Of a stretch of 64,000 nt of DNA, positions 7,050 through 62,181 are shown in pieces. Positions within the stretch are counted from its first letter, which is position 1. Each line of letters opens with the position of its first letter. Below the pieces are notes generated by a model that ran no database searches, had not been told where the DNA came from, and was given only the letters and a program-made list of their open reading frames with translations. Source of the DNA: an uncultured archaeon (lineage in GTDB: Archaea > Asgardarchaeota > Hermodarchaeia > Hermodarchaeales > Hermodarchaeaceae). The stretch lies in NCBI GenBank assembly GCA_964347045.1, contig CAYFXC010000011.1, positions 1 to 64,000 on the forward strand, in the 5' to 3' direction. The position numbers were made by a program, and so were the translations under genes.

Positions 7050-7201
7050 TTGCTCTTTTCATATGTTCAGTATCTCGGAATGAATTTGTACTACCTTCAC
7101 ACAGGCAAAAACCTTTTTCTGTTGTTTTCCTAAACCTTGATTGAAGCCAAGCGAAAGATTCCGAAAACATTGTTTCTGTCTAGGTAAGAAGGTGACTTAT
7201 T

Positions 7202-8218
7202 ATTCCTCGAGGACTTGTCCTTAGTCAATGGGACACGAAAGAAGGACTCAAGATATTATCCAAATATCCAGCTACTTTGGACTTTGAAATAAGTGACTTA
7301 TCCCTCATGTACTATGGGTCTGCACCTGAAGGTAATGGGACATCTTTCCAAGTGTTTCCCTCAATCGAGGTGAAGGAACGCGCTGCTGTTGCCTGTACCC
7401 GCACGCCACTTAAAAGCACCGAAGACGATATCTGTATCACTGTTTTACTGACTGCTGAGGAAGAAGGCGCTGCATATGAGGAAATTCTAAACAAAACGTT
7501 GCAGCGTATCGTAAAAACGAGTGGAAACCCTGCGAACAGAAGACGTAGGTACCGGCAAATTCTATCCGATAGTTATCGAAAAATTGAACGTCGTGGGGGA
7601 TCTCGCGATCAATCTCTTTGTCCCTACATGTATGAAAGACCCATCAAAGACAATAAGTTGACGTCATTTTGTCGGGTTGTAAAGAAACAATGCTATCTAA
7701 CCATCTACGAGATGCCGGGATACCCACAATGTCCCCGCTATATTCGTCGACAACGCCAAATTCAATTGTCTAATGCACGACAACTTGTCCGAGCCGGAAT
7801 TCGTCGCATCCTCGAGGATTATGATCATGAACGACAAAAGTTCAAAGACAAAAAAATAGGGAATTGGGGCGAACCGGTTCACGCAATTCTTGATCGTTTG
7901 TTCTCAATTCTGGAAGTAGAAGCAGAAACCGAAGACTATGCTCACAACGTTGTTGAATATGTAGGTAAAAAGGGGTTATTTCAAGGACATCCTAGACCTA
8001 TCATTGCTGCTTCCATTGCCTATTACAGTGCGAAACAGATTGGAGATTCAATACCCGAAAATGATATAATCGAACTTGTAGGTTGTTCACGTACCTCCCT
8101 GCGTCGCAATTATCGGGAACTTCGTACTCTCCTAAGTTCAGATGAGAAGAAACTCCCCAAACACAAACGAAAGCGACGCATGACGTCTCAAGAAAAAGCA
8201 ATTACTCGTACCGAATAA
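7202..8218 (+). CDS. uDENN/longin-like domain + Cys4 motif + TFIIB cyclin-repeat fusion protein (proposed ATT start)
   Basis: Frame is open upstream of track start 7277 to TGA 7193-7195; ATT 7202 gives IPRGLVLSQWDTKEGLKILSKYP, colinear with MPKGLSVCRWDDKVGLRVVGVYP of the 9299 gene; SD GGTGA 7191-7195; C-terminal KGLFQGHPRPIIAASIAYYSAK..IPENDIIELVGCSRTSLRRNYREL matches the TFB second repeat. Confidence 0.8.
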   Translation: MPRGLVLSQWDTKEGLKILSKYPATLDFEISDLSLMYYGSAPEGNGTSFQVFPSIEVKERAAVACTRTPLKSTEDDICITVLLTAEEEGAAYEEILNKTLQRIVKTSGNPANRRRRYRQILSDSYRKIERRGGSRDQSLCPYMYERPIKDNKLTSFCRVVKKQCYLTIYEMPGYPQCPRYIRRQRQIQLSNARQLVRAGIRRILEDYDHERQKFKDKKIGNWGEPVHAILDRLFSILEVEAETEDYAHNVVEYVGKKGLFQGHPRPIIAASIAYYSAKQIGDSIPENDIIELVGCSRTSLRRNYRELRTLLSSDEKKLPKHKRKRRMTSQEKAITRTE

Positions 8219-8239
8219 ATTCCGGGAGAACACTAAAAG

Positions 8240-9109
8240 ATGATTCACAACGTCTTCCTAATGACTCGCGACGGACGCCTGGCATTCCACCGCCAATACT
8301 GGTCAGTTGATATTACCACCGAAGAACGCCAAGAATTTCTAGCCACCTATAAACATTTCGAATCCGAACTTGGCACTCAAGTTGACTTACCAATCCATGT
8401 CAAGAATATAAAATTCATTTACGCCGAAGCGGGCACACACCTCCTCCTCGTCTTCGCCGTCGATATGAGTGACGAAGATGAAAAAATCAAAGAAACTCTG
8501 AAAAAAACCCGTGAATTCCTTATCAACAATTTTGGTCATGAAATTGATGCATACATCCAAAAGCCGGTTCCCCTTGGTGAAGCGTTCAAAGGCTTCGCAA
8601 CCGAACTCGACAATGTCATTGTTACTATGCTTAAAATTTGCCTACTTGGTCAAGGCGGTGTTGGAAAATCTACGATGCTCAAACTTCTTACTGCAGACAG
8701 CATCCCGGGAGATTACTACCCCACTATTGCTGTCGATATTGAAACCCTCCAAGGCGTTCGCTTCGGTCCCTATGAGTTAGCTGTCTGGGACTTTGCTGGT
8801 CAAGATCGATTCCGTTCATTATGGAATTATTATTTACGGAATGCTGATGCAGTGTTACTTGTTACAGATTCAACGCTAAAGAACGTTCTCGAAACCCGAG
8901 ACATCCTTGAGGTTGTTCGCAAGAACTCTCCCTCATCCATTGTCTGGGCGATTGGAAATAAGCAAGATCTTCCTGGCGCGTTAGCGCCCAAACTAGTCCA
9001 ACGAATTCTCGGCGTTCAAGCCTATGGGCTCGTTGCCATTGATCCACGCTACCGCGAAGTTCTCTACAAAATTATTTTAGGGGCTGTGGCTGAAGCCACC
9101 ACCGATTAA
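8240..9109 (+). CDS. longin domain-Arf-like small GTPase fusion
   Basis: N-terminal MIHNVFLMTRDGRLAFHRQY (AP-sigma/longin type); G1 GQGGVGKS, G2 PTI, G3 WDFAGQDRFRSLW, G4 GNKQD. Confidence 0.9.
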   Translation: MIHNVFLMTRDGRLAFHRQYWSVDITTEERQEFLATYKHFESELGTQVDLPIHVKNIKFIYAEAGTHLLLVFAVDMSDEDEKIKETLKKTREFLINNFGHEIDAYIQKPVPLGEAFKGFATELDNVIVTMLKICLLGQGGVGKSTMLKLLTADSIPGDYYPTIAVDIETLQGVRFGPYELAVWDFAGQDRFRSLWNYYLRNADAVLLVTDSTLKNVLETRDILEVVRKNSPSSIVWAIGNKQDLPGALAPKLVQRILGVQAYGLVAIDPRYREVLYKIILGAVAEATTD

Positions 9110-9298
9110 TGATTCATTTAAATTTCTTCATCGAATTTATTGCGAAAAATTGCAGAAAGCTACAACAAGAAGCCTTTCAAGAGGGGAACCGACAAACAAG
9201 TTAAATACGGGAAACTAAATAGTCAAAACGGAGTGCCAATAGGTCACTTTAAGAACGAAAGGTTCAGATACAATTTATTCAAACGGGAGATTGAAAGT

Positions 9299-10768
9299 AT
9301 GCCAAAAGGTCTAAGTGTTTGCCGGTGGGACGACAAAGTCGGTCTTCGCGTCGTTGGCGTTTATCCTCGAAATCTTGATGTGTCTGAAGACGACATGCTT
9401 CGTGTCTTCACGGCACATGCCATGGGAAAGCCGGAAGCGGGATTTCTAACCATGACTCTCGAAGGAACCAATATGGCTGTAAGTAGTTTCTATACTGGGA
9501 TTCTTCGTGGTCGTGATCAATTTTGCATTATGCTGTTTATGGATTTGGAGGAGGAACCTCGAGCATATGAAGAGGGATTGACGCTTGCCTCAAGTGAGAT
9601 TGTGGAAAATATTGGAGAGCCAGAATTTGTTGAGTATCTTGGTGAAGTTTTTGAGAAGCTGAAACGTATGGTGGAGCTGTCTGTGGAGCAGCGACTTGCC
9701 AAAGTGTTTGTTGATCAAGAAACCCGGTTGCTTATGCACAAGCTGGCTCGCGGAGGGATTCCCGCTGAGGAGCTGCGTGAGTGGCTCGAATTACAGACAG
9801 GGAAACATTATCCGGATTTAGGACTTGTGACATTGCCGCTGTTACGAAGTGGGCTAGTTGAAGAAGATTGGATTAACGCTGTATCAGATAACTGCGTATT
9901 TTTAGTCAATGATCTACTGGGTGCCCGATTTCCACCCGAACAATCACTTAAACTAGCCAAAGGTGGCGGATTGAATAGGGAGCAGTATCGTGAATATGAA
10001 AACCGCATTAAGAGCTTATTTGAGGGATATCAATGGACTGAAGAAGATACGATTATGATTGGACAACTTCTTCTCGATCCGGATATTTATGATGTGACCA
10101 AAACATTGCGGCGGAAGATTGCGCAAAAATCTGAGTTGAAAGGGGTTGTTGAGAAGGAAGCTTCGTTGGATAATGTGCTACGACGTTTAGAGCAAGCACA
10201 AGTGATTACACAAATGGGCACGGACTCCATCGAGATTTCTAAAAAAGATGATCCCCTGATTATGCTGACAGCAGATGTGCACTTTGAATCATTCTTTCCT
10301 GAGTTCTTGGTGCTTCGTATCCAGGAGCGTTTAGAGGCAAAGGATATTCATCCCGATATAGCGAAGCGGCATTTGGAATTACTTAGTGAGACCTATATGC
10401 GTATGCGTGAGAAAATGAAAGAACGCAAGAAACGCAAGAAGGAAGAGGGTGAAGAAGAACTTCCTGAAATGGAAGCGGAAATGGCACCACCTCCTGAACT
10501 CGCTGAAGTTGAACCACCCGAAACCGCTGATTTGCCCCCTGTAGATGAAGCAGAAGCAAAACGCATCCAGAAGGAAGAAGAAAAGAAGCGGAAAGAGGAA
10601 GAAAAACGCCTTAAAGAAGAAGAAAAGAAAAAGAAGAAAGAGGAAGAGCGAAAACGGAAAGAGGATGAAAAGAAGCTGAAAGAAGAAGAGAAACAAAAGA
10701 AGAAGGAAGAGGAAGAAAAGAAGAAAAAAGAAGCTGAGAAGAAAAAGAAAGAAAAGGAAGGTTCATAA
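9299..10768 (+). CDS. uDENN/longin-like + tandem winged-helix protein with E/K-rich charged tail
   Basis: ATG 9299 with GGGAG SD (preferred over 9140); W-D-x-x-x-G...YP uDENN-type N-terminus; two wHTH-like segments (LPLLRSGLVEE; LRRLEQAQVI); E/K tail. Confidence 0.75.
   Translation: MPKGLSVCRWDDKVGLRVVGVYPRNLDVSEDDMLRVFTAHAMGKPEAGFLTMTLEGTNMAVSSFYTGILRGRDQFCIMLFMDLEEEPRAYEEGLTLASSEIVENIGEPEFVEYLGEVFEKLKRMVELSVEQRLAKVFVDQETRLLMHKLARGGIPAEELREWLELQTGKHYPDLGLVTLPLLRSGLVEEDWINAVSDNCVFLVNDLLGARFPPEQSLKLAKGGGLNREQYREYENRIKSLFEGYQWTEEDTIMIGQLLLDPDIYDVTKTLRRKIAQKSELKGVVEKEASLDNVLRRLEQAQVITQMGTDSIEISKKDDPLIMLTADVHFESFFPEFLVLRIQERLEAKDIHPDIAKRHLELLSETYMRMREKMKERKKRKKEEGEEELPEMEAEMAPPPELAEVEPPETADLPPVDEAEAKRIQKEEEKKRKEEEKRLKEEEKKKKKEEERKRKEDEKKLKEEEKQKKKEEEEKKKKEAEKKKKEKEGS
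10561..10765 (+). repeat. purine-rich low-complexity coding repeat encoding an E/K/R single-alpha-helix-like tail
   Basis: EEEKKRKEEEKRLKEEEKKKKKEEERKRKEDEKKLKEEEKQKKKEEEE pattern; near-pure GAA/AAG codons. Confidence 0.85.
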
Positions 10769-10788
10769 TCCATTAGCTTTGCTAGGCT

Positions 10789-11457
10789 TCAATCTTTGAG
10801 CGTTCGTTGACGGTTTGCACTGCTAATATCACGAGCCGTCTCCCATGTTTGTCGGACAATATCTGGATACGTGCTATGCCTTTGAATCCAATCAGTAAGA
10901 AAACGCCTTGTTTTGGGATCATTTGGGTATCCACTACCAAAGTCTCCATAGGTTCTATGAAATTCTCGAATTCGCTGGTCCCTATGAACCTTAGCAACAA
11001 TCGACGCAGCGGCAACAATAGGATAAGTGGAATCGGCTTTGTGTTCGCTAATAATTTTATTTGGGATTTTCAATTGAGCAGTGATGATTCGTCCATAACG
11101 CTCTGCATTCACATCGGATGCATCAACATATGCCACATCCCATTTGAGTCTATTCAACACCTTCGCCATCCACTCTGCCTCCAAGACATTAAGGCTACGC
11201 TTCTTTTGGCGTTCGGCATCAATTTCTTTCGCAGTGATTTCAAGCACTTCAACACTAGAAGCTAGTTGCCGAATCCGTTGATCCAGCGCTTCTCGACGGT
11301 TAGCTGTTATTTGTTTAGAATCTCGAACCCCCCATTCATTAAGAGCTTCTTTCTTGGAGGCTGCAATAACGACTCCAGCAATAACTAGTGGACCAATGAC
11401 CGGACCACGTCCTGCCTCATCGATACCTGCAATATTTTGCGTCAAACCCAACACCAA
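10789..11457 (-). CDS. rnhB: ribonuclease HII
   Basis: GIDEAGRGPVIGPLV, RDSK, YVDA, KAD..YPIVAAASIVAKV.RD, GSGYP.DP; C-terminal QRTLKD truncated PIP-like motif. Confidence 0.97.
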   Translation of the reverse strand: MVLGLTQNIAGIDEAGRGPVIGPLVIAGVVIAASKKEALNEWGVRDSKQITANRREALDQRIRQLASSVEVLEITAKEIDAERQKKRSLNVLEAEWMAKVLNRLKWDVAYVDASDVNAERYGRIITAQLKIPNKIISEHKADSTYPIVAAASIVAKVHRDQRIREFHRTYGDFGSGYPNDPKTRRFLTDWIQRHSTYPDIVRQTWETARDISSANRQRTLKD

Positions 11458-11540
11458 ACAATGTAGTTCAGTTATTCCGAAACCATTAACAGTTGCTCAG
11501 ACTTATTAGTTCCTACTAAGTTTGCTTGCTTGTGGCATAT

Positions 11541-11825
11541 ATGTCAGAGTCTAAATATCCAGAAATATGGCTTAGTATGCTCGATGGAAAATTCCGTGTT
11601 TCTTCACGATTACCACCGCCAGCACAAATTCCCGAAGATTTTGATTGTCTGACCCCAGAAGGTGAAACCATGCCAATTTGCGTATCGCCATTATACGATA
11701 CTATTCACGACGCCAAGGGCCGGGCGGCAGCGCTTCAAGCAGACCTCCAACAACAGGGGTGTAAAGTGCTCTTTTTCTTTGAACTGCGTCCTGCAGTTGT
11801 TGGTGATCCTCACGCAAAGCGCTAG
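11541..11825 (+). CDS. hypothetical protein
   Basis: ATG-start ORF with natural composition, divergent from rnhB; 125-nt 3' overlap with the DedA gene. Confidence 0.5.
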   Translation: MSESKYPEIWLSMLDGKFRVSSRLPPPAQIPEDFDCLTPEGETMPICVSPLYDTIHDAKGRAAALQADLQQQGCKVLFFFELRPAVVGDPHAKR

Positions 11826-12558: not shown

Positions 12559-12602
12559 GTCCTGTTCCCCTCGCTCAATAGTTATGCTTACGTGTTTTTA
12601 TC

Positions 12603-12941: not shown

Positions 12942-13041
12942 TTTTTAAAAACCTTCATCACAGGAATTTACCAAGGATGTATTAAAGCACACTTTTAAAG
13001 CTTGTAGGAGTGCAGGATTTTCCGGAAAAGAAGGGGTCCTA

Positions 13042-14807: not shown

Positions 14808-17800
14808 TTAGTCTCGAAGCCGAATTTCATTCGAAGAAGATATCCATCGGGGACCTAAAGTCTGATTGAATAACGCTATGTAACTTGCCTGATCACTAAC
14901 TACTGCAACAATTTCGCCTTGATTTCCATACGTCGGAGCGATAAGGACCTCTTCTCCATCTCGAGATCCGCCGTAAAACTCCATTTTTGGGTTGTTCCAG
15001 ATTCTTATGTTACCTTGCTGTAAGAGCTTTTGAGCAATTGCTAGATGTTTTTCTCCATCAAGGGTGGTGATGATGTGAATTCGATTTTGGGGTTGTACCT
15101 TACTTAATTCTGTGATAGGAACTTCGTCAAATGAAGGATACACTAAGGTGATGGTTTCATCGACCCGTCGAAACATATCTAGAAGATGAGTTTGGATTCC
15201 TTCACAGGTAACTATTCGCCAAGTTCGTTCCGCTTCCGCCGGTTCCATCTTCGTGAGAGTGTCCCACAAACCGATTAGTATTTCTTCAGTTTGACTAGCT
15301 TGTGTTCGTAATCGGTTTAAAGTTGGTTCCGTTTGGGTTGTAAACAATTGTAAAGTATTGATTGCGGTTGTTTCAGCAGTTTTGGCTCTTGCTGTAATTT
15401 CTTTCGCCAGACTTTGGTATTCTACTTTCAGGGTCTGCCGTTCTTTACTCAGAGTACGGCTAAGACGTCTACCCGTTTGTTGCGTTTGGGTAACCAGTCC
15501 TTCCTTCGCGTTATCAAGAACTTGCTTTATAGTTGCAGTGACAGACCTGTTTTTCTGTTGGAGATCTTTAGACGTGGCACCTTTGAAGTTTTGCAAACTT
15601 TCTTTCATTCGACGCATGCTATCTTGAACAGCACGATTGAGTCGTGTCTCAGTTAAACTCATTGCCTTGCTTTGGCTTTGTAGTGCCTTTTCGACTTCCT
15701 GACCTATCACGGTTTGAAAAGTTTGTGTGTTTTCATCAATCGTGGCGCCTATATCAGAAAGGAGTTTATTAAATTCGGTTTGCGAACGCAATAATTCTGA
15801 TGTTACTGATTCCGAAAGTTTGTTTGACGAATCATCGATTTTAGTTCCAAAAGTAGAAAGATTTTCTCCTAACTGGGCGATCATGTTTTGTGTTGTGGTT
15901 TTTAGCGTTTCAGTATGCAATTGATAGGACTTGTCATTCTTTGAAAGAGTCGTGTTAAGGATATTCTCTAATGCATTATCAATCTCAGTTTGGTTTTGAT
16001 CAAGGACTTCTTTTCCTTCCTTCGCGACATGATTAAGACTATCCTGCATTTGACTTTGTATTTCCCGTGATTGTTCGGCAAGCGATTGAAACGTTGCCGA
16101 AGTTTCTGTGCTCAGGGCTGTTTGTTGAGCATTCATTGTATTCAGTAAGTTAACCTTACTTGTTTCAATTTGCTCAATGAGTTCAGTATCAATAGTTTCG
16201 CTGGTGTATCCAATCTTCTCTACTAATTTTGCAATAACAGTTTGTAATTGAACTAGCTCCTGTTGTAAAGTCGAAACATAGTCATCAGTTTCTTCAGATA
16301 ACGACGAGGCAAATGATTCTAGAAGTTGGTTAATTGCGGCTCTTTGTTCATCGATGCGAGTCGCGTATGTTTGACCAATTTCTTCAATATTTTGCTGAGC
16401 ATAAGGAATTTGTGTATCAGAAACCTCTTCTAATTGTGTTTGAATTTTATTTACGCCTTCAATTAGAACTGTACCCTGTTTTTGAATCAGATCTTGGATG
16501 TTTTTCTTTAAATTGCCAACTCTTGCTTCTTGGGTTTGTAATTCGGATTGTACACTTTCGACAAAAGAATTAGCACTTTCACTTATCTCTGAAAGATATG
16601 AAGTGGTGGTGTTTTCGATTTCACTGGTCATTGTTTTTATTTTTTCAGTTACTGCGGTTTTTTGTACTGATACATCACTACTTAAAGATTCGAGGATAGT
16701 TTGGGTTTCTTGAAGCTGTGCAATACAGTCTTCTTGCATTTCAGTAATACTTTGAGTGATTTGTTCGTTAATTCCCGTTTTTTCGCGATCAATTGCTTGA
16801 ACTGTGGTAGCCAATAGATTGGTTGTATCGTCTTCGAAATTAGTTAAGTTTGTGTTCATATTTACAATGGCTTGGTCGACAGCGGTTCCAATTGCTCTAT
16901 TTAAGGCGGTGAGATTGCCTACAATAGATGAGGAGTAGTCATTGATAATTTTTGTGAGGGGCAACCAGTATTTTTCAATGAGTGTTCGGGTATTTGCATC
17001 TGCCTTTGTTATACGATTAACAATTTTCGTGGTAACCTTGTCAACAGGCTCACTTAGTGATGGAATCTGAGTAGTTGAATATTCACGAAGTTTGGGTTGA
17101 AGCTGAGTTCGAAGTTGCTTTTCTAATGTAGTTTGAAATTGTACTGCTGTCTGGTTTTCTAAAGCTATTTGGTTATCTTTGATTTTTCTTCGATATGTAT
17201 CTATAATATCTCTTCCACTCTTTTTCAGCAGACTATTTAATTGTGTTTTCAAGGATTTTACTAAATTAGCTTGAATTAGTTGTTTGAGCATAGATTGAAA
17301 TTCGTTGTTTACACGTTTTTTATTAGTCAAGTGTTGGCGCTCAAGAGCTGATTGGTATTCAACAAAAACTGATAATAAGTCCATTATTTGGTTGCTCAAG
17401 TGGCGTTCACTTAATTCGGGAATTACTGCCTTATACAGAGCTTCAAGTTTTGTTTCGTTAGATTGGAAAATAGCGGCAATTTGCTTTTCTCTGTTGGTTT
17501 GTTTTTTAAGTTGTGTTCTGAATGTTTGAAAAATGGTTTCTAATTCCTTTGTGAGCTTGTCACACACGACCTTTTTTTCTTTTGTTAAAACTGTTTTGGG
17601 AAGTGTTCGGATTTTTTCAAGAGTTACCTGAAGTAATTTATCGATTTGCTTCTCACGTTTTGTTTGGCGTGAAATTTTCGTTTTACAATCGCGCATAATG
17701 GGTTTTATTTGATTATTGAACGTGTTGATTACTAGCTCATTGTATTTGGAGATTTGTTGGCTGTAAACCTCAATGAATTCATCACGAGCTAAATTGAAGG

Positions 17801-20192
17801 CCGTATCTGATTGCTTATCTTGAAGGCTTTGCTGTGATGCAAGAAATTCTTGAAAACTAGCTGAAATGTTATCTAATTTCAAATTCAGAGCTTTTTTAAT
17901 CACTGAATCGAAACTCTTGAGTCTCGCAGCAGTAATTTGCTTTGGTATTTTAGATTCGATTGCTGTTACCGCTTGTGTTTCTAGAGTTGTCATCTTGTTT
18001 CGTAATGAAGTTTGATAATCATTCAAAGCTTGGAGTGCAAAAAATGGAATATTTTCCCCCAAAATTAAATTCAAATTACTTAGAATTTCTTGATCTCGCT
18101 TTGCTAATTGCGTTGTTAGAGACCGGAAAATTCTGGCAATGGATTTATCACGGCTAATTTGTATCTCAGAAATCGCAGGTTGATAATTACCAACAGTGGT
18201 TTCTATTTTAAGAACCTGTTCTGCGCGAAGCTTGTCCGCGGTGCTTTCGATTCCTTCAGAATATTGTCTAACCATGCTTTCAAGCTTAGCTAATTCTTTT
18301 TGTAGTTCTGAAGTTGTTTTGTTTTTAATTTTTGTAAAAACTGTTCTAAAAGCCCGTGCTTCTTTTTCAAGGGCTTTTTGTTCTCTCACAGCTTGAGCCT
18401 TATTATCCGCTGCCGATTGCCTAATTGCCCCTTGTGCATATTTTAGCTGTCTACTAGCATATTTTGCTAATTGCTTTTCTGTTGCGTCAAGTGTGTTTAT
18501 TGTGGTTGTTGCTTCTGAGTTTAGGAGTTTTTGCATTTGTTTGCTAAACGTTCGATGTTGTTCTTCATGTAATCTGATTTTTGTTTGAAAGTCAGTAAGG
18601 AACCTTTCTGCTGTTTTTTGAACTGTTCGTAATCGACGTTTCAGCCGTCGTCCCACTTGATCAGAAATCGACTTGAAGTTGGTACCAAGGGTTTCTTTTT
18701 GGGTTTTACTTTCTTCGATGAGTGTTTGAAGAAGGGCTTGCACTTCAAGGATTTGAGCCAGGTAGGTATCTCGCATATCAATGCCTAAACCTTGACTTGC
18801 GTTTTCAAGAATTTGTTCATGTTCAGTTTTTACTTGCTCCATCAGGTTAGATAGAGACGCTTTGATTTTAGAAAATTGAGCAAAATTAAGAGACGATGGT
18901 GGCCACTTTGTAACTGTGGTTAAAGCTTCTTTGTGGAGACGCCGTAATTCTAAAGCACTGTGATTGTGGACATTTTTGAGATCTTGAAAGAGCTTTTCGA
19001 TAATTTGTTCTGAGGCGTCTCGATTTGATTTAATTGTTGAATCTATCGTTGTTGCTGCTCTATCCGTTTGCTGGGTGAGGAGACGGTTCTCTGTTATAAC
19101 TATTTTATTTAGCTGGGAAATTATGTTATTCAGTGCCTGAATGCGCTGTGTCCAAGTGTCTCTAATTTGAATGGCGAGATTCTGGTTATGTTTTGTTAAA
19201 TCTTGTTTGAGTTCTTTTTGTAAATTGTCTAGCATCTGTTGTGTTTCTTTTTTATAGGTGCCAATTTCGTTTGTGAGTATAATCGCAGTTTCTTCGGTGA
19301 GTTCAGATATTGCTTCTTTTTGTGAAGTGATATTAGATGCAAAGGTTTTACTTCCTCTATCTATGTTACCTTGAAGAAGAGTGTTTATTTCCTTAAGTTG
19401 TGATTTTACTTGTTCTGAGGTCGCGGTTGTTTTTGATATGAGCTCATCAGCAGTAGAACTTAGCCACTGGTTTGCTTCATCTTGATGGGTATCGATTGCC
19501 TTGGCGGCATCATCTAAGGCAAGTTTTTGTGTATCGCCTAGTTGGATGATTCCCTCATTAATGAGGTTATTTAATGCTTGTTGAATTGAAGTATTTTGGT
19601 TTGAAAGTTCGTCAGCACTTGACGATATTAGATTATCCAGGGATGTTTGCAAGTTTTCAACCAAATTACTCAATACAATGTTAGTTGCCATTGCGGCTTC
19701 GTTTAATGCAATTCCTTGACGCTCATTTAAATTCTCCAAGGCAGTTCGAGTCTGTCTGGTCATTGTTTGCAGCTCGTCGTGAATTTCACCTAATGTTTTG
19801 TTTTGGAGCTTCTGTAATTCTTTCCACGATTCTTGCGTGTCTTTTGTAAACACCTTTACTTCCTGGGCTAATTCTTTATAGGGAGCAAACGCTCGGTAAC
19901 GGGTGACCACACCTGGCAATGATTTGATGAGCTGTTTCTTTTCAAGCTCTTCAATTGTGTTTTTCATTTTGGCCATTGGAATTCCAGAATAATTACTAAC
20001 TTCATCCGCTGTCAGCTGGCCCATAACTAATAATACAGTATATGCCCGGCTTTGAGATTCAGTAAGCCTAACACGAACTTGCAAAGCGGTTAACAACTCA
20101 GATGAAATCTCAATCGGAGTAGCGCATTGAGCCGCACTTATTTCTTTAGGTGAAGTAGTTGGAGACTTTGGGTTACTTTCTTTTGGGGTCAT
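14808..20192 (-). CDS. giant TrmB-family protein: N-terminal wHTH, ~1550-aa amphipathic/coiled-coil insert, C-terminal TrmB effector-type domain
   Basis: LTESQSRAYTVLLVMGQLTADEVSNYSGIP...LEKKQLI...RYRAFAP (TrmB HTH); C-terminal TWRIVTCEGIQTHLLDMFRRVDETITLVYP...RDGEEVLIAP (TrmB EBD/PLD-like fold); Q/E/T/L-rich helical middle. Confidence 0.85.
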   Translation of the reverse strand: MTPKESNPKSPTTSPKEISAAQCATPIEISSELLTALQVRVRLTESQSRAYTVLLVMGQLTADEVSNYSGIPMAKMKNTIEELEKKQLIKSLPGVVTRYRAFAPYKELAQEVKVFTKDTQESWKELQKLQNKTLGEIHDELQTMTRQTRTALENLNERQGIALNEAAMATNIVLSNLVENLQTSLDNLISSSADELSNQNTSIQQALNNLINEGIIQLGDTQKLALDDAAKAIDTHQDEANQWLSSTADELISKTTATSEQVKSQLKEINTLLQGNIDRGSKTFASNITSQKEAISELTEETAIILTNEIGTYKKETQQMLDNLQKELKQDLTKHNQNLAIQIRDTWTQRIQALNNIISQLNKIVITENRLLTQQTDRAATTIDSTIKSNRDASEQIIEKLFQDLKNVHNHSALELRRLHKEALTTVTKWPPSSLNFAQFSKIKASLSNLMEQVKTEHEQILENASQGLGIDMRDTYLAQILEVQALLQTLIEESKTQKETLGTNFKSISDQVGRRLKRRLRTVQKTAERFLTDFQTKIRLHEEQHRTFSKQMQKLLNSEATTTINTLDATEKQLAKYASRQLKYAQGAIRQSAADNKAQAVREQKALEKEARAFRTVFTKIKNKTTSELQKELAKLESMVRQYSEGIESTADKLRAEQVLKIETTVGNYQPAISEIQISRDKSIARIFRSLTTQLAKRDQEILSNLNLILGENIPFFALQALNDYQTSLRNKMTTLETQAVTAIESKIPKQITAARLKSFDSVIKKALNLKLDNISASFQEFLASQQSLQDKQSDTAFNLARDEFIEVYSQQISKYNELVINTFNNQIKPIMRDCKTKISRQTKREKQIDKLLQVTLEKIRTLPKTVLTKEKKVVCDKLTKELETIFQTFRTQLKKQTNREKQIAAIFQSNETKLEALYKAVIPELSERHLSNQIMDLLSVFVEYQSALERQHLTNKKRVNNEFQSMLKQLIQANLVKSLKTQLNSLLKKSGRDIIDTYRRKIKDNQIALENQTAVQFQTTLEKQLRTQLQPKLREYSTTQIPSLSEPVDKVTTKIVNRITKADANTRTLIEKYWLPLTKIINDYSSSIVGNLTALNRAIGTAVDQAIVNMNTNLTNFEDDTTNLLATTVQAIDREKTGINEQITQSITEMQEDCIAQLQETQTILESLSSDVSVQKTAVTEKIKTMTSEIENTTTSYLSEISESANSFVESVQSELQTQEARVGNLKKNIQDLIQKQGTVLIEGVNKIQTQLEEVSDTQIPYAQQNIEEIGQTYATRIDEQRAAINQLLESFASSLSEETDDYVSTLQQELVQLQTVIAKLVEKIGYTSETIDTELIEQIETSKVNLLNTMNAQQTALSTETSATFQSLAEQSREIQSQMQDSLNHVAKEGKEVLDQNQTEIDNALENILNTTLSKNDKSYQLHTETLKTTTQNMIAQLGENLSTFGTKIDDSSNKLSESVTSELLRSQTEFNKLLSDIGATIDENTQTFQTVIGQEVEKALQSQSKAMSLTETRLNRAVQDSMRRMKESLQNFKGATSKDLQQKNRSVTATIKQVLDNAKEGLVTQTQQTGRRLSRTLSKERQTLKVEYQSLAKEITARAKTAETTAINTLQLFTTQTEPTLNRLRTQASQTEEILIGLWDTLTKMEPAEAERTWRIVTCEGIQTHLLDMFRRVDETITLVYPSFDEVPITELSKVQPQNRIHIITTLDGEKHLAIAQKLLQQGNIRIWNNPKMEFYGGSRDGEEVLIAPTYGNQGEIVAVVSDQASYIALFNQTLGPRWISSSNEIRLRD

Positions 20193-22040: not shown

Positions 22041-22117
22041 ATAGCAATTAGGAAAGAAAGAATTTTCAGAGAAAACCTGCTCAACATAGGTAGATACTTA
22101 CATCGGGGGTTTCTAGT

Positions 22118-23323
22118 ATCTACGACGTTATTGTCGTCGGAGCAGGACCAGCTGGGTCCATAGCCGCCTACAAATGTGCCAATGCGGGGCTTAATACATT
22201 GCTACTTGACAAAGCGCGATTTCCCCGTGAAAAACCCTGTGGTGGTGCGCTCTCGGTTCGTTCCCTCAACGCCCTAAAGTTTGCTAGGATACGGCTTCCC
22301 AAATCAATTATTGAACAGAAAATATATGGATTGCAGCTCATTGGTCCAGAAGGCATACCTTTTGAATATCGTTCTGCTCGAGTAGTTGCTTATACAGTTA
22401 AACGAAGCCAATTCGACAATTTCTTAGCAAACCGAGCAGTCAAAGCAGGAGCACATTTTGAACAAGAATGCGCCGTAAACGATGTGGAACAATACTCTGA
22501 TCGTGTTCTTTGTCACACTGAAAAGGGGAGATTTGAAGGTAAACTTGTCATAGGTGCAGATGGGGCTACATCAATAATAGGGCGAAAAGTAGGTCCTCGA
22601 AAACAAATGAAGCCTAAAGAAATTGGATTAGCAATTGAAGCGGATGTTCCGGTTTCAGAAACAATTTGGGATCAGAGTCTTGATCCTTCTCTTTTGGTTA
22701 TTTGGCTGCCCTATATTCCGAGAGGCTATTTCTGGGTCTTCCCACGAAAAAACAGTCTTTCTGTAGGTTTAGGTGGCCTGGCTACTAAGTTAGGCAATGT
22801 TCCAAACTTGCTTAGAGGATTATCCAGGCGGTTTTGCGAACAATTCGGGTTGCCACCCTTTACGTTCCAAAATCTGCGTGGCCATCTTTTACCTTTCTTT
22901 GAAAATTTAATTTCACTGACGAATCAGAGAGTACTTTTGGTCGGTGACTCTGCAGGATTTATTGATGTTTTTAGCGGGCAGGGTATCTGCTATGCCCTTG
23001 AGGGAGGATTAATTGCGGCCCGAACCGTTATTGATGTCATAAAACATCATGAAACGCTTTCTGAAGCTTCTTCCAGTTATCAGTGCAGAATTCAACAACG
23101 TTTTGGGGAAGAACTCCGCTGCAGCTGGCTAATAATGCGAATAGTTCATGCACGTCCTTATGGAGGATTTCGTGCTGCACGGTTTATGAAATGGCCTGGT
23201 CCAACACTTTTTGATATTGGTAGAGGAAAAACCGATTACTACCGTATGATACGTAACCCTCTTGGGTTTTTGTATAATCTCTTCAAATTTGAATTACAAA
23301 TCCGCCTTATGAAGACATATTGA
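22118..23323 (+). CDS. geranylgeranyl reductase family FAD oxidoreductase (proposed ATC start)
   Basis: In-frame YDVIVVGAGPAGS (FAD GxGxxG) at 22121 lies upstream of track start 22199; in-frame TAG 22091; KPCGG, GADG, GYFWVFP, LLVGDSAG..D..SGQGI. Confidence 0.9.
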   Translation: MYDVIVVGAGPAGSIAAYKCANAGLNTLLLDKARFPREKPCGGALSVRSLNALKFARIRLPKSIIEQKIYGLQLIGPEGIPFEYRSARVVAYTVKRSQFDNFLANRAVKAGAHFEQECAVNDVEQYSDRVLCHTEKGRFEGKLVIGADGATSIIGRKVGPRKQMKPKEIGLAIEADVPVSETIWDQSLDPSLLVIWLPYIPRGYFWVFPRKNSLSVGLGGLATKLGNVPNLLRGLSRRFCEQFGLPPFTFQNLRGHLLPFFENLISLTNQRVLLVGDSAGFIDVFSGQGICYALEGGLIAARTVIDVIKHHETLSEASSSYQCRIQQRFGEELRCSWLIMRIVHARPYGGFRAARFMKWPGPTLFDIGRGKTDYYRMIRNPLGFLYNLFKFELQIRLMKTY

Positions 23324-29474: not shown

Positions 29475-29637
29475 AGATTCTGCCTCCCAAAATCAAGCCT
29501 AGGATTCGCTAGGAATTAGGGCATTTAATGCTTTTCTTGTATTCTTATTACTCTCCGCCGATTCACTTTAAGCCTGCTCAGTAGAAAGACGCTTGAAATA
29601 ATCGCGCATTGGAACTCTTGATAGGAGGTTCTAGCCA

Positions 29638-31275
29638 ATTCCACAAGTTATCCGAAAGAGCTCACCTTATTTTGAAGTCTTCGAAGCAGACGAAGAAACA
29701 ATTGCAAGGCTTAATCAGATTGCTGAAAGGCTAACTCCTAATGAAGATAAAGAAACCATTCGTTTCAAGCTATTATTTGACAAAGCAGCGAAGCTTCCAC
29801 TAAGCCAATTAAACAATCTTTTCGCAAAAATCGATTATGAGGTTTCTCCGAGTTTGCAGAAAGCGATTCTTAAAAAACAAGGTGTAACCAGATTTGCGGA
29901 GCTGCGTATCCGGAAAAGCGATTTGATTCTAAAACCCGCCGGGTTCTTAGAGTTAGAAGAAATCAAGCCAATTTTAACTTACAATGCTAAGGAAAAACTC
30001 TTTCACGCACGGATAATGGATTACTACACAATCTTAAGTTTCTTACAAACTAAGGGCTATCCAGTTATCACTCATTTTTCTCTTCATTTTGCATTACCTG
30101 AAAATCTTCGTGCCCAGCTCCAGCTAGATATGGTGCTTCGCGAATATCAAGAAGATGCACTTCATCGATGGGAAGGGGCAAAAGGTCAAGGTGTTGTGGT
30201 CCTACCAACAGGTGGAGGAAAAACCATTGTTGGGCTCGAAGCTATTCGCCGACTTGCAGAAACGACTCTAATTATCGTTCCTACTCTTGATCTTTTAAGT
30301 CAATGGCGTGAAGCCCTCGAAGTATTGCTTCATGTCCCCGATGTAGGTGTTTTAGGTGGAGGTAAGAAAGATATCAAGTTCATTACTGTGGCAACCTATG
30401 ACTCGGCTTCTCTTTTAGCTTCTCAACTTGTTACTAATTTTGGGCTATTGATCTTTGACGAGGTCCATCATCTTCCAAGCCCCACTTATCGATTAGCTGC
30501 TGAACTCTCCTTAGCGCCTCATAGGCTGGGATTAACAGCTACACCTGAACGTTATGATGAACTTCATCACGACCTTGACCGGCTTGTCGGACCAACGGTT
30601 TATCGTATCGCACCACGGCTCCTTGAAAAAGAAGGTTTCTTGGCGCCTTATGAAATTCGACGAATACAAATTTCTCTCAAACCCGAAGAAGAAGCTCGAT
30701 ATGACTCTCATATGCGCATATTTCGCAACTATACCCGACGACTCGATGATATTGATCCTGGTTGGCAATTTGAAACCATTGTGAAAAGGACCGTATTTGA
30801 CCCCGATGCACGTGAAGCATTATCCAATTTAGAAAAAGCACGGCGAATTGCTCTTGAAGCTTCAGGGAAAATCGATCAGGTGGAATCCTTGCTCCAACAA
30901 TATCATGAAGCCAAGATTATAGTTTTTTCTCGCTACATTCGAGTTGTAGAACGACTTTCTGACCTTTTCGGTCTTCCCCTTATCACGCACAAAACTAAGG
31001 TTTCTGAACGGGAAAAAATTCTCAAGCTTTTTAAAACTGGAGAGTTAACGAAGATTGTAACCGGACAGGTTCTAGATGAGGGAGTTGACGTCCCCGATGC
31101 CTCTATTGGCATAATTATTTCTGGAACAGGCAGTAAACGTGAATTCATTCAGCGCTTGGGGCGTCTGCTTCGACCTCAAAAAGAACAAGCCATTCTGTAT
31201 GAACTTGTCACTGAATCTACAATAGAGGATGGTCTCTCTCGGCGAAGGCAAGTTGATAATGACGTTCCAGATTAG
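29638..31275 (+). CDS. xpb: XPB/Rad25 SF2 DNA helicase (proposed ATT start)
   Basis: LREYQ, PTGGGKT, DEVHH, LGLTATPER, LDEGVDVP, QRLGRLLR; frame open 72 codons upstream of track start to TAG 29632; GGAGGT SD 8 nt before ATT 29638. Confidence 0.92.
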   Translation: MPQVIRKSSPYFEVFEADEETIARLNQIAERLTPNEDKETIRFKLLFDKAAKLPLSQLNNLFAKIDYEVSPSLQKAILKKQGVTRFAELRIRKSDLILKPAGFLELEEIKPILTYNAKEKLFHARIMDYYTILSFLQTKGYPVITHFSLHFALPENLRAQLQLDMVLREYQEDALHRWEGAKGQGVVVLPTGGGKTIVGLEAIRRLAETTLIIVPTLDLLSQWREALEVLLHVPDVGVLGGGKKDIKFITVATYDSASLLASQLVTNFGLLIFDEVHHLPSPTYRLAAELSLAPHRLGLTATPERYDELHHDLDRLVGPTVYRIAPRLLEKEGFLAPYEIRRIQISLKPEEEARYDSHMRIFRNYTRRLDDIDPGWQFETIVKRTVFDPDAREALSNLEKARRIALEASGKIDQVESLLQQYHEAKIIVFSRYIRVVERLSDLFGLPLITHKTKVSEREKILKLFKTGELTKIVTGQVLDEGVDVPDASIGIIISGTGSKREFIQRLGRLLRPQKEQAILYELVTESTIEDGLSRRRQVDNDVPD

Positions 31276-48524: not shown

Positions 48525-48531
48525 TGCAAAT

Positions 48532-56717: not shown

Positions 56718-56729
56718 TTCCCCTTTTTT

Positions 56730-58102: not shown

Positions 58103-58356
58103 TCCTACAACCTGTTGCATTTTCGGATCTTTGCTTCTTAATTTAGAATGTTGGTTTTGAATTTTTAGTTTTTTAATTCGTGGTCTGCCTATATCCATAA
58201 AAGGTCTAATTAAATCTGTTATTGATAGATGCGTATGTCAACAGAGCAACTTTATACGTTCAGTAAGACAATTCATGAACCTGCAAAAATAAATGAAATT
58301 GAAGCTAAAGTTCACGTGCTCCACGCAGATGGTTTTTTCATTGAATCAAATTCGAT

Positions 58357-59493
58357 TTGAAGGTGAATAGGTTGAGTCTCTCGGCAAAAATAACCAAAAT
58401 CCTAGCCGAAGAAGGGGTTAATTTCTTTGTAACCTATCCTTGTGCAAAATTCCAGTCACTATATAATCTCATTCATACTGATTTCGATAGCATTGGGCTT
58501 ACGAAAGAAGAGGAAGGTGTGGGAGTCTGTGCAGGGGCAAGTTTAGTCGGTTTGAGACCTGCTATGCTGATCCAAAGCACAGGTTTAGGTAATATGTTCA
58601 ATGCCCTTTGCTCTTTGACTTTGACATATCAGCTTCCTCTCATGATTATTGCCAGTTGGAGAGGGAAATACCAAGAATCTATTCCCGCCCAACTCAAATT
58701 GGGTCAAAGTCTTCCTGCACTATTGAAAGCAATCGGCTGCAAACCTCAAGTCATCGAAACCAGAAAAGATTTATCCAAAATTACTACGGCGACACGTAAA
58801 GCATATGAAAAAAAGACACTACAAGTAGTTCTACTGAGTCCTCTTCTATGGGTTCACGAACCTCCACCAACATCTCTTGGCATACAGGAACCCGCTTCGC
58901 AACACTCAAAAACCCCTTTAGAATTACCGCCGTTAATTCCTGGATCACTTACTAGGTATGAAATAATTAAATCGAGTCTTCCTTTCCTGCAGGAAAAAAT
59001 CGTTGTTAGTAATATTGGCTATCCTTCCCGCGAACTGTATTCGTTATGCCATCAACCCTCAAATTTCTACATGCTTGGTAGTCTCGGACTTGCTTCATCG
59101 ATTGGGTTGGGTATTACAATGAGATCATCTAAAAGCACTGTCGTGATTGACGGAGATGGAAGTCTGTTGGCAAATTTAGGGTCTCTTGCTACAATTGCTC
59201 ATGTTGCCCCCCCGAATCTAACAATACTTGCTATTGATAATGGCGTTCATGGATCAACTGGAAATCAACCAACGGTTACCCGGTCTTGCGTAGATTTGGC
59301 TAAAACCGCACAGGGACTCGGGCTTCGCCATGTATATCGAGGAACTTCTAAAGATGAAATCGAATCTATATTGGCTGAATTAAGTACTGGACCTAATTTT
59401 GTACATATACCTGCTAAGCCTGGTAATGCTGAGGTTTCGACGATTCCTCTAACACCTCTTGAAATCAAACAAAATTTTATGCAGGCAATCTAG
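58357..59493 (+). CDS. comDE: fused sulfopyruvate decarboxylase alpha/beta (TPP-dependent)
   Basis: ComD: PC, EEEGVGVCAG, LIQSTGLGN..NAL.SL, SWRG...E...AQ; ComE: VSNIG.PSREL, NFYMLGS.GLASSIGLG, DGDGSLL.NLG, DN..HGSTG.Q. Confidence 0.85.
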   Translation: MKVNRLSLSAKITKILAEEGVNFFVTYPCAKFQSLYNLIHTDFDSIGLTKEEEGVGVCAGASLVGLRPAMLIQSTGLGNMFNALCSLTLTYQLPLMIIASWRGKYQESIPAQLKLGQSLPALLKAIGCKPQVIETRKDLSKITTATRKAYEKKTLQVVLLSPLLWVHEPPPTSLGIQEPASQHSKTPLELPPLIPGSLTRYEIIKSSLPFLQEKIVVSNIGYPSRELYSLCHQPSNFYMLGSLGLASSIGLGITMRSSKSTVVIDGDGSLLANLGSLATIAHVAPPNLTILAIDNGVHGSTGNQPTVTRSCVDLAKTAQGLGLRHVYRGTSKDEIESILAELSTGPNFVHIPAKPGNAEVSTIPLTPLEIKQNFMQAI

Positions 59494-59528
59494 TCCCGCG
59501 AATCGCATATTTGAACGAATACCTTAGT

Positions 59529-59760
59529 CTAGTAGACTTTTTTTGCAATCGTAATTGCTTTTTCTGCTGCAAACTCTGCATCGGTTGCAAACAAATAAGC
59601 TACTAATTCGATTCTGACAAGTCCTTTGTCAATCAGAACATCGAAGAAGTTCGATTTTTTTATATTTTTTCAATTCCAACCAAAAGCGCGGCAGCATTAT
59701 CTCGAAGTTCTTTAATACGGTGCCAGGTTGCTTCGGCGTATTTGAAGCCAATTTGATTAA
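59529..59760 (-). pseudogene. degraded fragment resembling the ThiN (thiamine-phosphate synthase) domain C-terminus
   Basis: Reverse frame reads FDVLIDKGLVRIELVAYLFATDAEFAAEKAITIAKKVY-stop, similar to ThiN PDVI.D.G..G.E...Y.FG.DA.E..EK; upstream frame broken at a homopolymer near 59655. Confidence 0.4.
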
Positions 59761-59864
59761 GTGTTTCTTAAGCAGATTAAATTTGATTTAACCAGATAAA
59801 TACGAGGAATTTTATTCAGGAATAGTCTTCAAGTAAAGCCAATTATATCTTCCAATAATAACCA

Positions 59865-60575
59865 TTGGTGGATGACGTGGAAGCATTTATCGCGGGGAAA
59901 CCCATTCTAAGTACAACCGATTGGCCTTCAAAAGTGTCCAGTGTCATTTTTTTTGTTGGTTGCAACTTACGATGCCGGTTTTGCTTCAATACTCCTCTCC
60001 TCGAATTTAATGAGCAATATAAAATCGATTTAGAGCTTCTCTATCCCGAATTGGAAACAAATCAATTTCTTATTGATGGAATTATCGTGACTGGTGGTGA
60101 ACCCACACTTCAACCTACCCCTCTGAAAACCCTTGCTGAATGGACAAAACAGCATGAGCTGGAATTTGGGCTGATGACAAATGGTACAAAACCTGATGTG
60201 CTTCGTCAGCTCCTGGAATCAGACCTGATAGATTTCATTGCTGTCGATATCAAAACTGTTCCAAGCCGAAACCAATATGTTCGTGTAACTCAGTCAACAG
60301 GTGAGATTTTGGATCGCATTAAAGAAACAGTGAAGCTCCTCAAGGCTTCAAAAATCAGTTATGAATTTCGTACAACTCTTGTCCCATCGCTTGTTGATAC
60401 TTACGAGCAATTAGATCAGATTCGCAAATGGGTCGGGTCGAAGCACCTCGTTCTTCAACTGTTTCGTCCAGTTAATACAGTTCTAGACACGTCATTGTCT
60501 ACAGCTTTCTCTCCGACGGAACTTGAAAAATTTCACCAATATGGACAGAAGCATGGACTAACAACTCGATTCTAA
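59865..60575 (+). CDS. nrdG: anaerobic ribonucleotide reductase activating enzyme (radical SAM)
   Basis: ST.DWP, GCNLRCRFCFN (CxxxCxxC), TGGEPTLQ, TNG, D.K, YEFRTT. Confidence 0.9.
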   Translation: MVDDVEAFIAGKPILSTTDWPSKVSSVIFFVGCNLRCRFCFNTPLLEFNEQYKIDLELLYPELETNQFLIDGIIVTGGEPTLQPTPLKTLAEWTKQHELEFGLMTNGTKPDVLRQLLESDLIDFIAVDIKTVPSRNQYVRVTQSTGEILDRIKETVKLLKASKISYEFRTTLVPSLVDTYEQLDQIRKWVGSKHLVLQLFRPVNTVLDTSLSTAFSPTELEKFHQYGQKHGLTTRF

Positions 60576-60657
60576 ATCCGCTTGGTGTTTTAGTTACAAA
60601 GGCTTTAATCTGAGGGGTTCGTGGAGGTCTTAGAAATCAAAGTACTGGGTTTTCGAC

Positions 60658-61065
60658 ATGACCACATGGACTATTAAACTAGTAAACGGTTCCGAATACA
60701 ACTTCATTGATCTCCATCAAGCCCTTGGCCAATATTACGAATTTCAATCTGGATGGATAAAAAAATTGCAATCTTGCATTAAAGAGCAGTCCACGTATTC
60801 GGTTCATATTAACTTACTCGAAATAACAACCGGGCCGAAAAATGAAAAGCTTCTTGCTCCCTTTCTCCTCCTTCTGATTACAAATACAAAACTAACTGTG
60901 GCTTTTCTGGGAGAATTAACAGAAAATGAAACTGGCTACATTGTTGGTATTTGGCCAGACAAATTTCTTCAAATTCTAAAGTCCGATAACGATGCCATTC
61001 TCAATATATTGTTTATTATTACTGACCAACCTGAACTCGTAGAAAAATTAGATTTGTATTTTTAA
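60658..61065 (+). CDS. hypothetical protein
   Basis: 135-aa ATG ORF, no family recognised. Confidence 0.65.
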   Translation: MTTWTIKLVNGSEYNFIDLHQALGQYYEFQSGWIKKLQSCIKEQSTYSVHINLLEITTGPKNEKLLAPFLLLLITNTKLTVAFLGELTENETGYIVGIWPDKFLQILKSDNDAILNILFIITDQPELVEKLDLYF

Positions 61066-61126
61066 TTGTCGTTCAAGGTCATTTTAATTCCGTAAATCAT
61101 ACGAGAATAATACCCTCTGCTGTGAG

Positions 61127-61837
61127 TTGCAAAAGAAATCTATTTATTGGTGCATTCATTGGAGTTGCGCTGGAGATACCAAAGCCGTGTCCACTACACA
61201 CTTGCCCCTATCCCCGGGTGAACAACCTAAAGGCACATTTCGTATTCTTAGCGTCGAACAAAGACATGAACGTAGTGGGCGTGTAATAATGCTCATAGAC
61301 GGAGAAAGTATGGGTGAAACAAAAACAGATCTTCGTAAACGCCAGTTTACCTATCAAATCCTTGGTTTTACTGATGCAAAAATAGAACCTGGCTCTTGGC
61401 TTCTTAGTCCTCGTGACGATATTGGAGTCATATTTGAAGTTCAGGAAATCACTAAAACTAAATCAAGAAAAAGAATTCCCAAACGTGTAGCGTTAAGAGT
61501 TAAATTCGAAGAAACTGGTTTCATCCGGCTAGATGAAACTTGGACAGTATATAAAAAACAGCCAATTACTCGTCGAGAAATGAGTCGATGGGAACAACGA
61601 ATGACTGATGGAGCAGCCCAGTATTATTGGCATGTCCTTCCAGGTGTATTAGATTCCGTGCTCTTTAAGCCCACCGAAGGAGTGAATGGAGAACAAGTAA
61701 GAAAAATTCGGAACCTTCAAGATCAGATATTATATCGGGCAATCAAAATGGCAAAGTCAAAAGAATCTGTTAAGTTGACTAGCACTCATCTTATTGATGC
61801 AACACGAGAGATTCTTCAACCTTTACAACAGGATTAG
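61127..61837 (+). CDS. hypothetical protein (beta-rich N-terminus, helical lid-like C-terminus)
   Basis: 236-aa ORF; true start probably GTG near 61188 after GGAG. Confidence 0.7.
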   Translation: MQKKSIYWCIHWSCAGDTKAVSTTHLPLSPGEQPKGTFRILSVEQRHERSGRVIMLIDGESMGETKTDLRKRQFTYQILGFTDAKIEPGSWLLSPRDDIGVIFEVQEITKTKSRKRIPKRVALRVKFEETGFIRLDETWTVYKKQPITRREMSRWEQRMTDGAAQYYWHVLPGVLDSVLFKPTEGVNGEQVRKIRNLQDQILYRAIKMAKSKESVKLTSTHLIDATREILQPLQQD

Positions 61838-61845
61838 GGCACAAT

Positions 61846-61860
61846 ACGAAAGGTTTAAGT
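61846..61860 (+). promoter_or_regulatory. putative BRE+TATA promoter of the TFS-like gene
   Basis: ACGAAAGGTTTAAGT, purine run followed by TTTAA. Confidence 0.5.
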
Positions 61861-61911
61861 GTCTCATATTCGCGGCATCCCTCGCAACGAAATTTTCGGG
61901 GGGTAGCGACA

Positions 61912-62181
61912 ATTCAGTTCTGCCCAAAATGTGGTAGCCTACTGCGTCCAGAAAAAAATAAAGCCGGCAAAACAATACTCAAATGCTCCTGCGGCTACAA
62001 ATCTTCCGCAAAGGAAACAGAAGGTTACAAAGTTAAATTTCCCATTCGCCACACTGAACGGGACTACATCGTCGTTGTAGAAGAAGAGGAAGAGGGAAAG
62101 AAACGCAAAAAGCGTGAAATTGATGAAGACGAGAGACAAGAAATGCTTGAGTTAATGCTGGACCACTTTCCAGATGATTAA
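61912..62181 (+). CDS. TFS/Rpb9-like zinc-ribbon protein lacking the C-terminal catalytic ribbon (ATT start; absent from ORF track)
   Basis: Translates (I/M)QFCPKCGSLLRPEKNKAGKTILKCSCGY...VVVEEEEEGKKRKKREIDEDERQEMLELMLDHFPDD; GGGGGGT SD 7 nt before ATT. Confidence 0.85.
   Translation: MQFCPKCGSLLRPEKNKAGKTILKCSCGYKSSAKETEGYKVKFPIRHTERDYIVVVEEEEEGKKRKKREIDEDERQEMLELMLDHFPDD

Follow-up and report, generated by a model that had tools for sequence, protein, structure and literature searches.

This work concerns a 64,000-nucleotide stretch of DNA (hereafter the window) from an uncultured archaeon of the family Hermodarchaeaceae (Asgardarchaeota; contig CAYFXC010000011.1, positions 1 to 64,000), and the start codons of four of its genes. 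We consider it highly probable that these four genes, and some 15-30 genes across the genome, are translated from the near-cognate codons AUU, AUC and AUA, with ACG in addition at the gene for the transcription factor TFB. On this reading, an initiator Met-tRNA is held at such codons by a Shine–Dalgarno (SD) sequence, and the starts are kept weak. The genes affected would amount to roughly 1% of all genes and about 3% of those led by an SD sequence. The evidence comes from the anatomy of the sites, from their conservation among relatives and from a genome-wide enrichment.

The window belongs to a metagenome-assembled genome (MAG), here called G000, in which it is C11:1-64000. The MAG spans 2.58 Mb in 83 contigs, is 88.9% complete with 3.8% contamination, and has a GC content of about 42%. 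Genes were called with our own simple, crude codon-usage gene finder, which returned 2,508 open reading frames (ORFs) covering 89% of the genome. A search of the MAG for a 16S rRNA gene found none, so the anti-SD sequence was deduced from k-mer enrichment upstream of ATG starts. The genome has the SD consensus GGAGGTGA, whose first G lies most often at -14 relative to the ATG and ranges from -17 to -12. For comparison we used the GTDB genomes of 14 congeners and of 4 members of a second genus in this family, which makes 19 family genomes with G000 included. We write ATH for ATT, ATC and ATA.

Four candidate near-cognate starts in the window

The genes, their SD sequences and one paralogue that serves as an internal control are as follows.

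7190-7195, plus strand: SD sequence of gene (a), AGGTGA; its TGA (7193-7195) is the in-frame stop
7202-8218, plus strand: gene (a), putative cyclin-family (TFIIB-cyclin-like) protein, 338 amino acids (aa); ATT start; N-terminus (M)PRGL
9299-10768, plus strand: paralogue of gene (a); ATG start (ATG CCA AAA GGT CT = MPKGL); internal control
22105-22110, plus strand: SD sequence of gene (b), GGGGGT; offset -13
22118-23323, plus strand: gene (b), geranylgeranyl reductase (GGR) family, 401 aa; TAG 22091 upstream; ATC start, then YDVIVVGAGPAGS
29624-29629, plus strand: SD sequence of gene (c), GGAGGT; GGAGG or GGGGG kept in all orthologs
29638-31275, plus strand: gene (c), putative XPB-type superfamily 2 (SF2) DNA repair helicase, 545 aa; ATT start; TAG 29632 upstream
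61898-61904, plus strand: SD sequence of gene (d), GGGGGGT; conserved in orthologs
61912-62181, plus strand: gene (d), TFS/RPB9-type N-terminal zinc-ribbon protein with a charged tail, 89 aa; ATT start, then QFCPKCG

The preliminary description of the window had proposed these four starts, and the in-frame stops, SD sequences and ATT or ATC codons all read as it had them. Between the upstream in-frame stop and the ATH codon there is no ATG, GTG or TTG at any of the four sites. The spacing of 6-8 nucleotides (nt) that it gave was also borne out, with the four ATH codons at -13 or -14 against the genome peak of -14, and each site carries a 6-base SD match. The GGGGGT of the GGR gene would pair with the anti-SD through one G:U.

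In gene (a) only CTT ATT stands between the TGA at 7193 and the ATT at 7202. The motif AGGTGA or AGGTGT is found at unchanged spacing in all 18 orthologs, most of which also have the TGA in frame three codons upstream. The likeness claimed between PRGL here and MPKGL in the paralogue is real: the paralogue has its ATG at 9299, and from that ATG onward it aligns to residues 1-111 of gene (a). As to family, the orthologs are named 'cyclin family protein' by NCBI; the TFIIB model NF001658 gives 16.9 bits (cut-off 384) and covers only the C-terminal 80 residues, and a Pfam search of gene (a) gave no match. The two paralogous genes (7202-8218 and 9299-10768), which share their N-terminal 110 residues, flank a 289-aa gene of unknown family (8240-9109).

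The GGR protein matches TIGR02032 with 220.7 bits (cut-off 158.8), position 1 of the model being the residue directly after the ATC. As had been argued for this gene, the flavin adenine dinucleotide (FAD) motif depends on ATC 22118, and a start at TTG 22199 would delete the GxGxxG. The ATT at 29638 adds 72 codons to XPB, as proposed, since the earliest canonical codon is TTG 29854; the protein matches the Pfam families ResIII (98 bits) and ERCC3_RAD25_C (64 bits), both above their cut-offs, and the XPB equivalog model NF045503 with 263 bits, below the cut-off of 610. In gene (d) the in-frame stop ends at 61797, and no canonical codon follows in the frame until ATG 62143, close to the gene's end. 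The ATT yields the zinc-ribbon N-terminus that had been predicted, with PF02150 at 30.8 bits (cut-off 25.2) and position 1 of the model at the ATT. The transcription factor S model TIGR01384 reaches 39.9 bits, below its cut-off of 64.75, and only the N-terminal RPB9-type ribbon matches; a separate match, a 114-codon open frame on contig C15, is probably the true TFS.

Elsewhere in the window, positions 14808-20192 on the minus strand hold a 1,794-aa ORF within a low-GC (0.37), strongly AT-skewed stretch.

Conservation of the starts among relatives

The preliminary description had suggested alignment of orthologs as a check. In these alignments the orthologs have a start codon, ATG or near-cognate, at the corresponding position, which is also where the coding signal sets in. 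The position in gene (a) is ATT in 5 and ATC in 14 of the 19 family genomes (G000 included) and ATG in none, while the codon at 7199 is variable. At the XPB start, 17 family genomes have ATT (5), ATC (10) or ATA (2), again with no ATG and with the SD at fixed spacing; an in-frame stop lies two codons upstream of the ATH in three family genomes, and residues 2-72 are 70-81% identical within the genus. The TFS-like gene is more mixed. Among 17 family genomes, G000 included, we count ATT 3, ATA 8, ATC 1, ATG 2 and TTG 1, with two others having an ATG two codons upstream. The GGR gene has ATC in G000 only; its orthologs begin with ATG, GTG or TTG 0-2 codons before YDV, and five have ATG at the exact position of the ATC.

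When the orthologs are aligned on the start codon without gaps, the SD block is the only conserved part upstream. From the ATH onward a three-base periodicity sets in: conservation is 0.81-0.94 at the first and second codon positions and 0.60-0.70 at the third. The canonical codons TTG 29854 and TTG 7277 are ordinary, variable leucine codons in the orthologs (TTA, CTN, TTG). XPB homologues outside the Hermodarchaeaceae have canonical starts, and the ATH start of XPB is therefore specific to the family.

Enrichment across the genome

The whole genome was scanned for in-frame codons between an upstream stop and the first ATG, GTG or TTG, with an SD at canonical spacing and at least 15 following codons of positive coding score. 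This count puts the three ATH codons in ranks 1-3 of 61 (ATT 7, ATA 6, ATC 4); the other 58 codons have at most 3 matches and mostly 0-1. ATH thus accounts for 17/59 strict matches against an expected 7.7% (p=1.3e-6), and the use of ATT, ATC and ATA at the sites is roughly proportional to their background codon frequency. The remaining near-cognates are scarce, with AAG 0, CTG 1, AGG 1 and ACG 0, the TFB site falling under the coding-score cut-off. Random loss of ATG would not leave such a pattern, because AAG, AGG and CTG would then appear too, and only third-position variants are enriched. The ATH sites also have stronger SD sequences: a run of at least 6 bases is found at 12/17 of them and at 172/473 SD-led canonical starts (p=0.008).

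About 15 sites are left, four of them in the window, after one false match in the initiator tRNA (tRNAi) gene and one double count are dropped. They form a lower bound, as the scan sees only sites that precede the first canonical codon and have an SD of at least 5 bases. Several candidates were rejected on inspection. The false match is an 'ATA' at position 60664 on the minus strand of contig C1, inside the tRNAi gene; an ATT at 58827 on the minus strand of C2 heads an N-terminally truncated fragment of a thiamine pyrophosphate (TPP) enzyme; and the extensions from CTG candidates are short and resemble non-coding sequence.

A pyrimidine directly follows the start codon in 9/13 near-cognate starts and a G in none, compared with a pyrimidine in 155/473 (33%) SD-led canonical starts (p=0.013), a post hoc observation on a small sample.

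The same strict test was run on 398 kb of an outgroup Asgard genome, G019, where 3/18 matches were ATH, which is not significant in an underpowered test. In this genome, a MoaD/ThiS-like N-terminus (IKVKLLFFAS...) lies behind an ATT preceded by GGGAGGG at position 376702 on the plus strand of contig C1, and there are two ATA candidates besides. Low-level use of ATH may be phylum-wide.

Other genes with probable near-cognate starts

Genes elsewhere in the MAG show the same arrangement. An ABC ATPase (C10:14190) has ATA, and in 13 genus genomes the same position holds ATH in 11 and ATG in 2; its first canonical codon would remove about 15 N-terminal residues of the ABC_tran domain. A TauE exporter has ATA, shared with the closest relative, the second genus having an ATG one codon upstream. 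The primase PriS has ATC in 5/5 genus genomes, a DUF447 gene has orthologs with ATC (3), ATT (1) and ATG (1), and a MarR-like gene has ATT in 3/3. Domain models begin at the ATH codon for GGR, the TFS-like gene, the ABC ATPase, TauE and DUF447.

Two further cases concern the transcription machinery. The main TFB gene (G000:C1:193088) has GGAGG, 9 nt and then ACG ACG in 18/18 family orthologs, with a TAA directly before the ACG in the second genus. The protein is 97-99% identical within the genus, and its first canonical codon would cost half of the zinc ribbon. TFB, an essential transcription factor, thus has a probable start at ACG. The gene for Rpo7 (RNA polymerase subunit E'; G000:C16, about 4757-4930, minus strand) has GGAGG, 7 nt and then ATC TAC. 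At this position all 13 genus genomes examined have ATC, and the second genus has ATT (2) or CTG (1). Judged from sequence, then, the ATH/ACG set takes in essential transcription and replication genes.

The initiation machinery

Altered aIF1 or aIF2 had been offered as a possible cause of these starts, and here the preliminary description found no support. The aIF1 gene of G000 is an ordinary single-copy gene with an ATG start behind GAGGT; in G000 and 6 other family genomes the start is ATG, or TTG in one of them. Compared with 27 other Asgard aIF1 sequences, the family has GGS for GGT, V or L for E before LQGD, and N for K at position 84, substitutions that are conservative. Listed in full, the family-specific residues at otherwise conserved Asgard columns are S9, R16, V57, S69 in ACGGS, N84 and the V/L before LQGD. 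In other Asgard families (G025, G045, G062, G035) the aIF1 gene itself has no canonical start before its CPxCG knuckle, only AGGAGG, 9 nt and then ATA. Because these ATA-started families carry the common residues, the substitutions do not explain the ATH starts.

The tRNAs are equally conventional. We found one tRNA-Met only, and its CAU anticodon, its A1:U72 pair and the GGG:CCC pairs of its anticodon stem are those of a textbook archaeal initiator. The one tRNA-Ile(GAU) has G1:C72, lacks the GGG:CCC stem and is an elongator of the ordinary kind. None of the 34 tRNAs detected, an incomplete set, combines initiator-like features with a GAU or UAU anticodon. Loss of KsgA/Dim1, which raises non-AUG initiation (PMC7897474), was considered as a cause and rejected, the gene being present in 19/19 family genomes.

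A proposed mechanism and its rivals

We propose that a strong SD duplex with the 3' end of 16S rRNA would set the near-cognate codon in the P site. There the ordinary initiator Met-tRNA (CAU) would tolerate a third-base mismatch at AUH and a second-base mismatch at ACG, and since it is this tRNA that would read the codon, the protein would begin with methionine. Near-cognate starts are expected to be weak, and selection would keep them so in order to limit or tune how much is made from certain genes, namely those for repair and replication enzymes, transcription factors and transporters. At the XPB and cyclin-family genes T, C and A interchange in the third position with G in 0/36, which suggests that weakness of the start is itself under selection. 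We infer which tRNA reads these codons, which residue stands at the N-terminus, that the starts are weak and that their purpose is regulatory.

Some of our results weigh against this interpretation. Both the gene set and the SD consensus rest on a home-made codon-usage gene finder, in a MAG lacking 16S. The family orthologs are kin, not independent samples. The ATC of the GGR gene is species-specific and could be a recent start loss. In 333 kb of a congener, G012, the strict test found 0 ATH among 6 matches, in a sample that leaves it underpowered. A few orthologs, for example of PriS and the ABC ATPase, have a canonical codon 1-5 codons upstream that could be used there. Finally, ATT, ATC and ATA are all three isoleucine codons, and 'never ATG' on its own would also fit a conserved internal isoleucine. 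This last reading is excluded by the stops found 1-3 codons upstream in many orthologs. Stops at this distance are seen for the cyclin-family gene, XPB and TFB.

The most serious alternative, though an unlikely one, is that start fidelity is relaxed throughout the lineage by altered aIF1 or aIF2, the ATH starts being a passive consequence. It would account for near-cognate starts in many unrelated genes, the essential TFB, Rpo7 and PriS among them, and the aIF1 of the family does depart from other Asgard aIF1 at otherwise conserved positions; aIF1 is known to disfavour non-AUG complexes and, in Sulfolobus, to destabilise them (cited in PMC6237735 and PMC8211752). But the changes are conservative, and ATA starts also occur in Asgard families whose aIF1 has the common residues. 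The affected genes are about 1% of the total, the ATH starts need above-average SD sequences, tRNAi and KsgA are normal, and at XPB and the cyclin-family gene none of the 36 cases has ATG although T, C and A replace one another, which points to selection on the codon. The earlier idea of relaxed start selection in the lineage is only partly sustained: as far as comparative evidence goes, ATT and ATC starts are recurrent and family-wide, and extend to ATA and, at TFB, to ACG, but the pattern points to selected weak starts and not to a mere loss of fidelity.

Three other explanations fare much worse. Start-codon loss in pseudogenes, or assembly and consensus errors at an ATG, would suit the GGR gene, whose ATC is unique to G000 while relatives have ATG there, and the MAG is only 89% complete with 3.8% contamination. 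Against this, 16-18 MAGs assembled independently of one another have ATH at three of the four sites, the ORFs are intact, and AAG, AGG and CTG are not enriched as third-position variants are. Logan contigs from the probable source run are identical to the window across 22118 and 29638, an agreement that does not amount to independent data, as they probably come from the same sample. We regard loss or error as very unlikely. It is hardly more plausible, and in our estimate slightly less so, that the true starts lie downstream (TTG 7277 or ATG 7313, TTG 22199, TTG 29854 and ATG 62143) and that the extensions are untranslated leader. Public gene callers do pick these codons, and in G000 a 5-base SD-like match precedes TTG 29854, but the extensions are conserved at the protein level with three-base periodicity, they hold the FAD GxGxxG motif and the zinc ribbon, and the TTGs vary as leucine codons in orthologs. 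Insertion of isoleucine at ATH, through an elongator tRNA-Ile or another initiator, would explain why all three isoleucine codons are used roughly at background frequency and why ATG is avoided at some genes. We give it almost no credence, since no initiator-like GAU or UAU tRNA was found among the tRNAs detected, the lone tRNA-Ile(GAU) has G1:C72 without GGG:CCC, and ATG, TTG and ACG fill the same position in orthologs or other genes. To our knowledge such initiation has no precedent.

A bolder extension is that the AUH/ACG starts may form a conserved class of selected weak starts across Asgard archaea, placed on core information-processing genes in this family (TFB, Rpo7, PriS and XPB) and on aIF1 itself in other Asgard families. 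They would then make up a translational regulon following the activity of aIF1, an archaeal forerunner of the stringency that eIF1 controls in eukaryotes. We put this forward as speculation that is unlikely to hold.

Consequences for annotation

Gene calling is directly affected. The preliminary description had warned that standard annotation truncates or loses genes in this lineage, and this we can show for two families, those of the cyclin-family gene and the TFS-like gene. Public predictions of gene (a) are 303-305 aa long in most genomes (303 in G000), against 338 aa from the ATT. Many public predictions of gene (d) have 48-80 aa and no zinc-ribbon Pfam match. In every Hermodarchaeial MAG, gene finders restricted to ATG, GTG and TTG will shorten such genes or miss them. 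The inventories of Asgard protein domains that feed arguments on the origin of eukaryotes are consequently biased at N-termini and for small proteins.

Comparison with known systems

The closest bacterial parallel is found in the Escherichia coli genes infC (encoding IF3) and pcnB. These have SD-dependent AUU, AUC or AUA starts that are read by the normal initiator tRNA, are conserved and weak, and limit or tune expression. NCBI table 11 lists AUU, AUC and AUA as alternative initiators, and a few bacterial genes are documented to use them. Like infC and pcnB, the Hermodarchaeial genes have a third-position near-cognate positioned by an SD, and the non-AUG codon is conserved between species for genes (a) and (c) and largely for (d), though not for GGR. 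Unlike them, the host is an archaeon with aIF1, aIF1A and aIF2 and no IF3, dozens of genes are concerned instead of 1-3, and all three ATH codons are interchangeable. An autoregulatory loop of the infC type, in which the gene of the fidelity factor has a weak start itself, is not evident, because aIF1 is ATG-started in this family. Switches from AUG to AUU are otherwise rare, with 1 in 61,358 reconstructed starts across 36 prokaryotic groups (PMC5622118).

Near-cognate initiation in eukaryotes, at CUG, GUG, ACG and AUU under eIF1 and eIF5, involves homologous factors, and it shares with our sites the use of ACG (at TFB) and AUU; eIF1/aIF1 is a known discriminator of start codons (PMC6237735, PMC4705826). 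It differs in that the Hermodarchaeial sites are positioned by an SD, with no scanning or Kozak context, that CUG is not enriched, and that they are the sole starts of main ORFs and not upstream ORFs or N-terminal extensions. That AUH and ACG starts are conserved on essential genes of transcription and replication, in those archaea that are most closely related to eukaryotes, matters for the evolution of start-codon stringency and its control by a/eIF1. The conserved leaders, each an SD followed by AUH, are usable directly in existing archaeal toeprinting and cryo-electron microscopy systems for initiation.

For archaea, reviews give AUG, GUG and UUG as the only start codons (PMC7531240), and our searches of the literature turned up no paper that reports near-cognate starts from Asgard archaea. 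Ribosome profiling of Haloferax volcanii placed about 30% of putative alternative initiation sites at near-cognate codons, which were set aside as possible false positives (PMC7261190). Initiation in Hermodarchaeaceae resembles that of Haloferax in being SD-led. The near-cognate sites of Haloferax are not shown to be conserved main starts, whereas those described here are the only possible starts of conserved and partly essential genes.

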